A stretch of 64,000 bases of DNA. Source: a virus. The notes below the pieces were generated by a model, which saw only the letters and a list, made by a program, of their open reading frames with translations, was not told the DNA's origin and made no database searches. The translations under genes were made by a program, and so were the position numbers. Positions 15,437 through 25,664 of this stretch are shown here, one piece after another. Position 1 is the stretch's first letter, and each line of letters begins with the position of its first letter. The stretch lies in the IMG/VR virus record IMGVR_UViG_3300050147_000032. The stretch is one strand, 5' to 3'.

Positions 15437-15543
15437 GCGTCGTTAGCTCAGTTGGTAGAGCATCGGACTTACATCAAGTGCAGAGAAATACTGCACTTTA
15501 GTTAATCCGCAGGTCGCTGGTTCAAGTCCAGCACGACGCACCA
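15437..15543 (+). tRNA. tRNA-Lys(UUU)-like gene with a 31-nt insertion in the anticodon loop
   Basis: 107 nt minus 31 gives a canonical 76 nt. Body closely resembles enterobacterial tRNA-Lys. Removing 15471-15501 gives loop CT-TTT-AA. Confidence 0.8.
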
Positions 15544-19654: not shown

Positions 19655-19730
19655 GGGGGTGTAGCTCAGTTGGTAGAGCAGGTGCTTTGCAAGCATCAGG
19701 TCGCAGGTTCAATTCCTGTCACCTCCACCA
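19655..19730 (+). tRNA. tRNA-Ala(UGC)
   Basis: G3:U70, loop TTTGCAA, CCA. Confidence 0.96.
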
Positions 19731-20010
19731 TTTTATTGTTATGAAGATAAATCCTTAGGATATATCATGAACATCGAATTTGTTTCAATTACGTCAAATA
19801 TGAATTCTAATCAATTGATAAATGATAGGATTCATTCTTTGTATTTGCATTGTCAAGAACACATGCAACGTCAGATTGATGGAGGCATTGCCGGTAAGCC
19901 AATCTCAGAATTGTACTCCGCTAGGCTCGAATTATGTCAGTATTCTAACTGGGTGATTGATGCAGAGGAAGACGACATGGATGAAGATGATCTTGACATC
20001 GATTTTTAGA

Positions 20011-20120
20011 GGGTGTGCTCTGGTGAGGTGTATGCATGGTGAGTAGCCATAGGAGCATTAACTGACATGTAGCCATACTGTTAGGGGGCAATTTGGGTTC
20101 GATTCCCAACATATCCACCA
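20011..20120 (+). ncRNA. 110-nt tRNA-like RNA with Ala identity elements (mini-tmRNA-like)
   Basis: GGGTGTG/CATATCC acceptor with G3:U70, A73, CCA; T-arm TTGGG-TTCGATT-CCCAA; no D stem or canonical anticodon arm. Confidence 0.7.
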
Positions 20121-20137
20121 TTTTAAACGAGGAAATA

Positions 20138-20467
20138 ATGAGCGAAAGAAAAACAGTTACTTCCAATGTTCATTTGTTTGGGACATATGAAAAATTCACA
20201 TTTGATGATCTTTTTGAACGTCTACAAACAGAAATCATAGATCGTCCTGAAATTGATCCTCAAACAATCAAATTTGGGATTGAAGAAGAACGATACGATT
20301 ATACTGATGGATCATATTTCTATTTCGCAATGTATTACGATCGTCCAGAGACAGATCAGGAATATCAAACCAGAATTGATCGAGAAAACAATAGGAAAGT
20401 TGATCAAGAAGAACGAGATCGTCGAGAATTTGAACGACTCCAAAAGAAATTTGGAGAAAAGGCTTGA
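20138..20467 (+). CDS. Hypothetical protein
   Basis: ATG at 20138 after a GAGGA RBS. Confidence 0.7.
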   Translation: MSERKTVTSNVHLFGTYEKFTFDDLFERLQTEIIDRPEIDPQTIKFGIEEERYDYTDGSYFYFAMYYDRPETDQEYQTRIDRENNRKVDQEERDRREFERLQKKFGEKA

Positions 20468-20500: not shown

Positions 20501-20577
20501 CGGTAGTTAGCTCAGTTGGTTAGAGCGGAGAACTCTAAATTCTTTGGTCATCGGTTCGAATCCGATACTACCGGCCA
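20501..20577 (+). tRNA. Amber suppressor tRNA (anticodon CUA)
   Basis: CGGTAGT/ACTACCG, canonical D and T arms, GAGAA-CTCTAAA-TTCTT, G73, CCA. Confidence 0.9.
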
Positions 20578-21216: not shown

Positions 21217-21558
21217 ATGCGATCGTAGATCAACAAAGAAAAGACTTGGGTGTATGTGTTTATTCGGAAGGATCTTCCAATAGAACAAATCATTGTGCAG
21301 ACAGCACATGCAGCCTTGGAGTCTGGAATCCATCTAAAACACGATAAAGAAAACGAACCATCTTCTCTGATTGTTCTTCAAGTGAAGAATCAAAAGGAAC
21401 TAGAAAAAGCTTATGAGAAGCTTAAAGATTCTGGAATCGAACTGATAAAGTTCTTTGAACCAGACTGGGATTATGGATTTACATCGTTTGCTTCTGAACC
21501 TGTAACACAAGAACACAGGAATAAATTCAAGAAGTATCGTCTTTTTAATGGAGGTTGA
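21217..21558 (+). CDS. Peptidyl-tRNA hydrolase (Pth2-like) with in-frame TAG at codon 4
   Basis: VFIRKDL...VQTAHAA...LIVLQVKNQKEL fits the PTH2 fold. AAGGA RBS precedes ATG CGA TCG TAG, in frame with the rest of the ORF. Confidence 0.75.
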
Positions 21559-21560
21559 TC

Positions 21561-22115
21561 ATGTATGCATAGACTTTTGATGATCTGATTGCAAAGATGC
21601 AATCGTGTTACCAATTTGAAAATATCAACATGTTGGATCATGGGAAGATGGTTGCTTCATCGTATGATGAATTGATCGATCAACTTGAATCTGGAACTCA
21701 TGAAATCCAATTGTTGAATGATTTATATGAACTACTGAAGAATAATCTTGTTGATTCTTTAGCAATCAGAAGATATCAAGTCTATCATGACTGTGGAAAA
21801 CCTTTCTGTGAACCTACAGAAGAACGGAAGTATCCAGATCATGCTAGACATTCTTCTGAACAATGGTTGACTCTTTTCCCTGAAGATGTTGACATTGCAG
21901 AGTTGATGAGGCTTGATATGGTCTTTCATGAAGGAGCTGATGAATCTTTTTATCATCATAGACTTGCTCCTACATTGTATTTGACTGCATGGGCGGAGAT
22001 CTATGCGAATTGTCAGATGTTTGGTGGAACGAATTCGACATCTTTCAAGATCAAGAAAAAGAAGTTGATTCAACAAGGTAAGAAATTCATTAAGCACTTG
22101 ACTAAACAAGAGTAA
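21561..22115 (+). CDS. HD-domain phosphohydrolase-like protein with in-frame TAG at codon 4
   Basis: LDHG...YHDCGKP...PDHA...DMVFH. GGAGG RBS precedes ATG TAT GCA TAG, in frame with the 21597 ORF. Confidence 0.7.
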
Positions 22116-25478: not shown

Positions 25479-25664
25479 TATGTTTAGAGTTGATAGGGAC
25501 GGCAATCCCGTTGACAGTTGATACACGCAAAATCAGAATTCGTTGCCGCTGAATATTTGATATTTGCTACTTTGTCATCCAGTGGTTAGGATGGTCCCGC
25601 TGACAGGGAAGAACCTTGGTTCGAATCCAAGCAAAGTCATTAGGTGTTATCAACTCTAAACATA
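25479..25664 (+). ncRNA. Long-stem-closed bipartite RNA containing a degenerate tRNA (25568-25639)
   Basis: 17-bp perfect inverted repeat TATGTTTAGAGTTGATA/TATCAACTCTAAACATA; inner tRNA-like domain with loop GCTGACA. Confidence 0.7.

Follow-up and report, generated by a model that had tools for sequence, protein, structure and literature searches.

The 110-nt RNA gene at positions 20011-20120 on the plus strand of the window (the whole 64,000-nt stretch of viral DNA that was analysed, from IMG/VR record IMGVR_UViG_3300050147_000032) lies within a tRNA array and, judged from its sequence, can best be classed as a long and atypical variant of the phage tag-less mini-tmRNAs, a known class. Direct reading of the sequence confirmed the original observation of a tRNA-like gene with alanine identity and no anticodon. 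That the element is a functional phage tRNA-like RNA of this tag-less (CDS-less) mini-tmRNA kind, acting as a mimic in trans-translation, is a reading to which we give about an even chance; its most likely role would be, by analogy, that of a mimic binding AlaRS and SmpB and thereby modulating trans-translation in the host.

The tRNA-like domain (TLD) of tmRNA is defined by an alanine acceptor stem, A73 and CCA, a T arm, a stemless D loop with GG and the absence of an anticodon arm. A 'TLD only' tmRNA was listed for mycobacteriophage DS6A by Hudson et al. 2014 (PMC4131195), entered on the tmRNA Website as Phage__Mycobacterium.9; this phage precedent goes unmentioned in the initial annotation, and DS6A is the only example discussed in the literature examined. 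According to the account of their work in PMC4131195, Mao et al. 2009 found that a similar molecule, a DS6A-like construct, is a strong inhibitor of tmRNA in E. coli irrespective of whether it can be charged, and the same account gives titration of SmpB as a possible cause. The 2025 tmRNA database paper repeats the DS6A case and adds CDS-less plastid and mitochondrial forms (PMC11915505).

Structure of the RNA gene

RNA position n corresponds to window position 20010+n. From 5' to 3', the RNA reads GGGUGUG, CU, CUGGUGAGGU (with no D stem) and a 63-nt interior, followed by the T arm UUGGG-UUCGAUU-CCCAA, then CAUAUCC, A and CCA. The acceptor stem joins 1-GGGUGUG-7 (20011-20017), which supplies the G3 of G3:U70, to 100-CAUAUCC-106 (20110-20116) in 7/7 pairs including two wobbles, G3:U70 and G5:U68, and the 3' strand with its U70 runs on to 20120 through the discriminator A107 (A73) and the encoded C108-C109-A110. 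The T arm, 83-UUGGG/UUCGAUU/CCCAA-99 (20093-20109), is perfect, with 5 bp, a 7-nt loop and base-pair probabilities of 0.68-0.89. RNA positions 10-13 have no partner close by with which to form a 4-bp D stem, and the element contains no 5-bp stem closed by a 7-nt anticodon loop. These readings bear out the initial annotation, which had described an acceptor stem with G3:U70, A73 and encoded CCA, a perfect T arm, and neither a D stem nor an anticodon arm. A pattern describing the whole architecture matched only the element in the window and none of 100 dinucleotide shuffles.

The stemless D-loop-like segment CUCUGGUGAGGU (20018-20029) contains UGGUG and a GG whose residues are candidate partners of the T loop. 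Its UGGUG motif is common to phage mini-tmRNAs, and UGGUG(AG) also occurs in L161, L166, L162 and L179. CUCUGGUGAGGU contains neither the UUCGAC conserved in the D loops of tmRNA nor the UCGA(C/U) of DS6A-like D loops.

The interior of 72 nt holds no tag frame. One tiny frame inside the element, GCC AUA GGA GCA UUA ACU GAC AUG UAG, was considered and rejected, as it has no tag-like C-terminus; its stop falls in the helix-2 bulge described below, and a tRNA of the phage itself suppresses UAG. The gene is closely framed by its neighbours, with a 1-nt spacer to the upstream ORF (19767-20009) and a 17-nt spacer to the downstream ORF (20138-20467), which has an AGGA ribosome-binding site, and all genes and tRNAs around it lie on the same strand. 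An antisense ORF of 73 aa (19945-20166) matched no PHROG family.

Searches with tRNA and tmRNA models

The element was called neither by ARAGORN nor by Rfam at gathering thresholds. With the tRNA model RF00005 it obtained 17.3 bits for a partial match (20063-20117), compared with 36-76 bits for the real tRNAs of the phage, and a canonical tRNA was rejected on this score (29 bits are required) together with the missing D stem and anticodon stem-loop. The Infernal search with the tmRNA model RF00023, proposed as a check in the initial annotation, gave 29.3 bits in glocal mode, a better fit than to the tRNA model and yet below the 47-bit cut-off, and 15.4 bits in a local search. The ordinary tRNA-Ala of the same phage reaches 34.4 bits on RF00023, which is above the 29.3 bits of the element; the order of the two models is nevertheless reversed, the element scoring higher as tmRNA than as tRNA (29.3 versus 17.3 bits) and the tRNA-Ala far higher as tRNA (72 versus 34.4 bits). 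Taken with the anatomy, a helix-2 motif and the tmRNA-bearing relatives described below, this score ratio makes it reasonable to place the element with the tRNA-like domains of tmRNA type. The class originally proposed, an alanine-identity tmRNA-type domain without a message, is thus a reasonable one for a sequence that lies below the Rfam tmRNA cut-off.

Other forms of tmRNA were also considered. A full tmRNA was rejected for the element on account of the missing tag frame and pseudoknots PK1-PK4, the score below cut-off and a negative ARAGORN tmRNA search, and none was found elsewhere in the 97-kb record to which the window belongs. A split tmRNA is not apparent either, no tag-like frame (...[LVAIF][AV]A-stop) being present in the non-coding DNA of that record. 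The parallel with jakobid mitochondrial tmRNA, which had been drawn initially along with a search by the mt-tmRNA model, did not hold up, RF02544 giving no match at E <= 1. The other Rfam families, for example YrlA, did not match the element.

A tRNA with a mini-intron, which would decode after its excision, is a very improbable explanation. It is suggested by the tRNA at 15437-15543 of the same phage, which has an insert of 31-32 nt in its anticodon loop, by the ~50-nt inserts in tRNAs of relatives, and by ARAGORN at a lowered threshold, which proposes a 'tRNA-Tyr with intron' here. Default ARAGORN with introns, however, was negative for the element and positive for 15437-15543 used as a control, and when all single-segment deletions of the element were made, a tRNA was called in only four adjacent variants, as an implausible 95-nt 'tRNA-Thr(AGU)'. 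The absence of a D stem and the low, partial RF00005 score also speak against a hidden tRNA.

Interior fold and helix-2-like motif

The MFE structure computed with ViennaRNA contains two hairpins, at RNA 26-30/36-40 and 52-57/69-74, which are the same as the alternative hairpins of the initial annotation, and has a cloverleaf-like shape with arms at RNA 18-48 and 52-74. The MFE of the whole element was no better than that of shuffled sequences (z = +0.29).

The alignment to RF00023 places AACUG-ACAUGUAG (RNA 50-62) on the conserved GACUAAGCAUGUAG of tmRNA with high posterior probability. The interior thereby carries a helix-2 signature of tmRNA, AACUGACAUGUAG, and its complementary 5' strand is present as well, GUAUGCAUG (RNA 20-28) being able to pair with CAUG-[UAGC]-CAUAC (56-68) in the layout of tmRNA helix 2, where a helix of 5 bp is interrupted by an AGN bulge on the 3' side and then continues. 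In window coordinates, the candidate 5' strand GUAUG-CAUG lies at 20030-20038 and is complementary to 20066-20078 around the UAGC bulge, while the 3' strand recognised in the RF00023 alignment, AACUGACAUGUAGCCAUAC, extends over 20060-20078; the strands are ~27 nt apart. By our own arithmetic, ~1 in 1000 random interiors would contain an exact CAUGUAG spaced roughly correctly from the T arm. A long helix 2 with the conserved GCAUGUAG as 3' strand reaches 9 bp at most, with helix 2a missing.

A 9-nt direct repeat, GUAGCCAUA, occurs at RNA 33-41 (20043-20051, within the first MFE hairpin) and at 59-67, where the second copy forms part of AACUGACAUGUAGCCAUAC, and either copy is able to pair with the 5' strand. 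In the ViennaRNA calculation, the two local hairpins (-31.2 kcal/mol) are favoured by 7 kcal/mol over the helix-2-like pairing (-24.3 kcal/mol), to which a probability of about zero is assigned. When the interior was aligned pairwise with nine tmRNAs from phages and bacteria, the result was significant for that of L159 only (z = 3.1).

Distribution and conservation

No orthologue of the element was found by DNA patterns in the viral, metagenome and genome collections or through the flanking and nearby proteins. With blastn, the locus had no match among 50,697 phage records, the flanking small ORFs had no relatives in the viral contigs, nhmmer with the element found nothing in 33 related loci, and three architecture or motif patterns yielded nothing, or a single chance match (L069), in the viral contigs. 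A pattern with a longer gap added no 7/7 elements in the viral contigs beyond L159 and L170, and the contigs that encode homologues of the downstream 109-aa ORF are short and leave no gap upstream of it. When the architecture or motif pattern was applied to metagenome contigs, 44 matches were obtained and rejected, all of them being 3' parts of ordinary tmRNAs; among six run through ARAGORN, five were called tmRNA, and the sole match whose acceptor stem pairs 7/7 was one of these. In other samples, contigs of the same phage, up to 212 kb in length, are 100% identical over 6.3 kb including the element. Since no orthologue was found, covariation says nothing on either the interior or the ends, and because the element stands alone we infer its interior fold and its function.

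Relatives of the phage were found through a neighbouring glycosyltransferase-like protein (37-54% identity), and in several of them a complete tmRNA gene occurs within or close to the tRNA array, of the standard type in G016, G018, G027 and G028 and of the permuted type in L007 and L013. As standard or permuted tmRNA genes thus occur in relatives, a tmRNA ancestry of the element would be natural.

Phage RNAs consisting of a tRNA-like domain only

The DS6A element was located at L124:28478-28560, where RF00023 scores 43.2 bits. A search pattern for its family, GGG-N7-UGGUG ... GUUCGANUC-N8-UCCA, matched only DS6A and the candidate in the first 125 loci, while in IMG/VR it matched 76 viral contigs (L126-L201), 62 of them with a 7/7 acceptor stem, corresponding to about 42 unique sequences; examples are L135:5273-5352(-), L133:5683-5762(+) and L181:7312-7391(+), the last being DS6A itself. 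The family consensus is GGGNNNN-AAAUGGUGUCGAUU-H2a-AAAGCCNC..GG-H2a'-AAGAC-T arm. Among 34 unique members of 78-80 nt, compensatory changes on both sides were found in 14 of the 18 pairs of the acceptor stem, H2a and T arm. ARAGORN misses the family members, with the exception of one called tRNA-Gln and one inside a permuted-tmRNA call, and in bacterial genome contigs two of 120 among the matches listed are perfect mini-tmRNAs. From this covariation, the ARAGORN non-calls and the few perfect bacterial matches it follows, at the level of sequence comparison, that the class of TLD-only mini-tmRNAs is real, selected and enriched in phages.

The element shares the general features of this class, being a phage-encoded, alanine-identity TLD with no tag frame. 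Its 110 nt do not match the DS6A-type size of ~62-90 nt with a single covarying H2a hairpin, and of the DS6A-type D loop, (A)AUGGUG(UCGAUU), it has UGGUG and lacks UCGA, with a linker that reads CAAU, not GAC/AAC. The UCGA is also absent in a minority of the family, L161, L162 and L166 reading UGGUGAG. A family model (R1) gave its best score in the window to the element (35.8 bits, E = 1.4e-7); as ordinary tRNAs elsewhere reach 35.5 bits, and as the model skips 54 nt of the interior as an insertion and has invariant columns identical to the search pattern, this score is no independent support for family membership.

Descent from a tmRNA has to be weighed here also as decay, in which the element would be a functionless remnant of a phage tmRNA after internal deletion of pseudoknot 1, the tag frame and pseudoknots 2-4, with ends still awaiting decay. 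Full tmRNAs are present in the relatives and none is present in the 97-kb record, the interior keeps a helix-2-like fragment only and folds no better than shuffled sequences, the element is a singleton for which no orthologue was found, and the UCGAC of the D loop and the GAC linker are missing, all of which speaks for such a remnant. The acceptor stem and T arm nevertheless retain their full set of 12 base pairs, A73 and CCA are intact, two ORFs bound the element exactly in a compact phage genome, and the 9-nt repeat and 72-nt interior are unlike a simple deletion product of a standard tmRNA. Since many phages carry tag-less TLD RNAs as a class under selection, the RNA need not have lost its function along with the message, and we regard the decayed remnant as unlikely.

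Four RNAs of ~100-110 nt with alanine identity and a TLD-like form were observed at L159:5374-5483(-), L170:5751-5857(+), L179:9974-10075(+) and L192:6501-6599(-). Inside each of them lie another T arm and an acceptor-like helix (GGGCUG/CGGUCC) in a loop-capped 'double-elbow', and they are covered by no Rfam family. The L159 RNA begins 6 nt after a full-length tmRNA at L159:5489-5882(-) (113 bits), and its 3' 29 nt differ from those of the candidate by one base, with a compensatory 4:69 change. The contig L192 also has a GOLLD RNA in its tRNA array, at L192:8272-8707(-) (RF02032, 176.7 bits).

Genomic neighbourhood

The window is part of a 97-kb IMG/VR record of a large soil phage, the record being about 44% complete. 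Between 14 and 29 kb of the window, about 20 tRNA genes with small ORFs among them form an array on a single strand, in which the ordinary tRNA-Ala(UGC) is found at 19655-19730 on the plus strand (RF00005, 72 bits), as had been indicated initially for position 19655. An amber suppressor tRNA(CUA) is located at 20501-20577 (+), 381 nt downstream of the element, and a Pth2-like gene for a peptidyl-tRNA hydrolase of archaeal/eukaryotic type follows at 21256-21558 (+), ~1.1 kb downstream of the element (PF01981, 27.1 bits versus a cut-off of 23); a Pth2-like gene is also found beside the 161-aa protein in L337, L338 and L340. SmpB (PF01668) was not found in the 97-kb record, which represents ~44% of the genome.

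Several further unusual genes were observed in this phage and its relatives. The sequence at window 25568-25639 (G000:C1:44831-44902) scores 36.3 bits with RF00005, above the cut-off, in a search of its own genome, is absent from the window-wide gathering list and was not called by ARAGORN; it may be an unusual tRNA or a tRNA-like gene. Related jumbo phages have tRNAs with ~45-55-nt inserts after the anticodon region (L020:1539-1666, L020:1937-2064, L053 and L022:17157-17272), among which L053 (G016:C1:112148-112269, minus strand) combines a D arm with a G3:U70 acceptor stem, and several of those in the G016 record (L020, L053) share CUUGACCGGCAACGGUACG. In the tRNA array of a related phage, L345:7754-7794(+) is a 41-nt 'minihelix' consisting of an acceptor stem and T arm only, GGGGGUG...GGUGG-UUCGAAU-CCACC-CAACCCC-A. 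In L337, a relative with 70% identity in the 161-aa protein, a release-factor-like protein with PCRF and RF-1 domains, apparently in two pieces, is encoded at L337:2903-3574(+) directly upstream of the Pth2-like gene, adding a further gene of termination and rescue to this neighbourhood.

The search for orthologues through the 161-aa protein gave a single lead, contig L341, which encodes a 169-aa protein 59% identical to the 161-aa protein at window 21630-22112. Its order, tRNA-Met ... tRNA-like element (1365-1456) - ORF - tRNA(CUA), is that of the window, and the intervening ORFs of the two are unrelated. The tRNA-like element, L341:1365-1456(+), has a T arm with UUCGAUU, no anticodon loop and an MFE z of -2.4; its acceptor stem is ambiguous, reading as 7/7 pairs with A3-U70 or as 5/7 with G3:U70, and it has no Rfam match. 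The position of this element upstream of the suppressor tRNA hints that the linkage of suppressor and element is inherited. A general link is counted against by the DS6A-type family, where none of 240 tRNAs neighbouring the 76 matches is a suppressor.

The syntenic tRNA-like element of L341 would also be compatible with a tRNA-shaped RNA acting outside trans-translation, folded as a four-way junction of the acceptor stem, two enlarged arms and the T arm. Such an RNA could be a decoy for AlaRS, for an anticodon nuclease or another tRNA-directed defence, for the CCA-adding or repair enzymes encoded by this phage or for a Ro60-like protein, or alternatively an RNase P punctuation site in a polycistronic transcript. 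The cloverleaf-like MFE fold agrees with this possibility, and stable tRNA-like RNAs, rnaC and rnaD, are known from the tRNA cluster of T4. The combination of G3:U70 with A73, CCA and the helix-2 heptamer, however, is specific to tmRNA and tRNA-Ala and would be needless for punctuation, rnaC and rnaD are unlike the element beyond the T arm, and there is no Rfam match of YrlA type, so that a decoy or processing element of this sort seems to us a rather doubtful alternative.

Proposed role and significance

As a tag-less mini-tmRNA, the element would be transcribed together with the tRNA array and cut at its 5' end by RNase P, the 3' end already carrying CCA; the acceptor stem and T arm should permit both RNase P processing and binding of EF-Tu. 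The host AlaRS would be expected to charge it via G3:U70 and A73, and the product could then, on the DS6A-type precedent, compete for SmpB with the tmRNA of the host, perhaps also for EF-Tu and stalled ribosomes. As a net result, tagging by tmRNA would be damped or stalled ribosomes would be released untagged, and the leading hypotheses for the function are the two of the initial annotation, a minimal rescue RNA or a decoy of SmpB and AlaRS. Such expression, charging, SmpB binding and effect on the host we infer by analogy.

Suppressor read-through is a source of trans-translation substrates (Ueda et al. 2002, as cited in PMC3985003). Because stop-codon read-through feeds trans-translation, damped tagging or untagged release may matter for a phage that carries a suppressor. 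It is conceivable, though quite improbable, that the three neighbouring genes form a module in which the amber suppressor drives read-through, the alanine TLD RNA rescues ribosomes untagged or blocks tmRNA-SmpB, and the Pth2-like hydrolase would release the peptide from dropped-off peptidyl-RNA. If true, this would constitute a suppressor-coupled, tag-free pathway of ribosome rescue. The suppressor tRNA and peptidyl-tRNA hydrolase as neighbours suggest a testable link from stop-codon suppression to the control of trans-translation.

Many phages seem to use tag-less mimics of tmRNA to manipulate the ribosome rescue of bacteria, and these mimics are mostly missing from annotation. If the element belongs with them, the class extends to T4-like jumbo phages, in an elongated form retaining a part of helix 2. 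As a single unconserved sequence, the element is of value as a lead and not as a discovery.

Comparison with known RNAs

The element resembles tmRNA (SsrA, RF00023) in the anatomy of the TLD and in having AACUGACAUGUAG where the conserved GACUAAGCAUGUAG sits, with a 3' bulge. It differs in that tmRNA has a resume codon, a tag frame and pseudoknots, none of which is present in the element, and about 250 nt between the helix-2 strands where the element has ~27 nt, with helix 2a essentially missing. Like the element, the jakobid mt-tmRNA and the ~65-bp plastid forms (PMC11915505) have an alanine-accepting TLD without a tag frame, whereas these organellar message-less tmRNAs differ in gene organisation, size and lineage, and RF02544 does not match the element.

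The small RNAs species 1 and 2 of T4 (rnaC and rnaD) are similarly situated inside a tRNA cluster, and rnaC ends in a hairpin like a T arm. Unlike the element, they have no acceptor stem of alanine identity, and homology with them was rejected, as nothing is alike beyond the T arm and the interior gave z < 1.

With respect to the DS6A family, the element is longer (110 nt versus 78-83 nt), where the family has a single short H2a hairpin it has a 72-nt interior with two possible hairpins or a helix-2-like pairing, and its UGGUG is not followed by the UCGA(C/U) of most members and of tmRNAs. Its linker before the T stem is 14 nt long and ends in CAAU, compared with 3-7 nt ending in GAC/AAC, and its CCA is encoded, whereas most members of the family are without CCA. 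In common with that family, the element is phage-encoded and combines an acceptor stem of 7 bp containing G3:U70 with A73, a T arm of 5 bp with UUCGAUU and a stemless D loop with UGGUG, has neither an anticodon arm nor a tag frame, and is overlooked by the standard tRNA and tmRNA finders.
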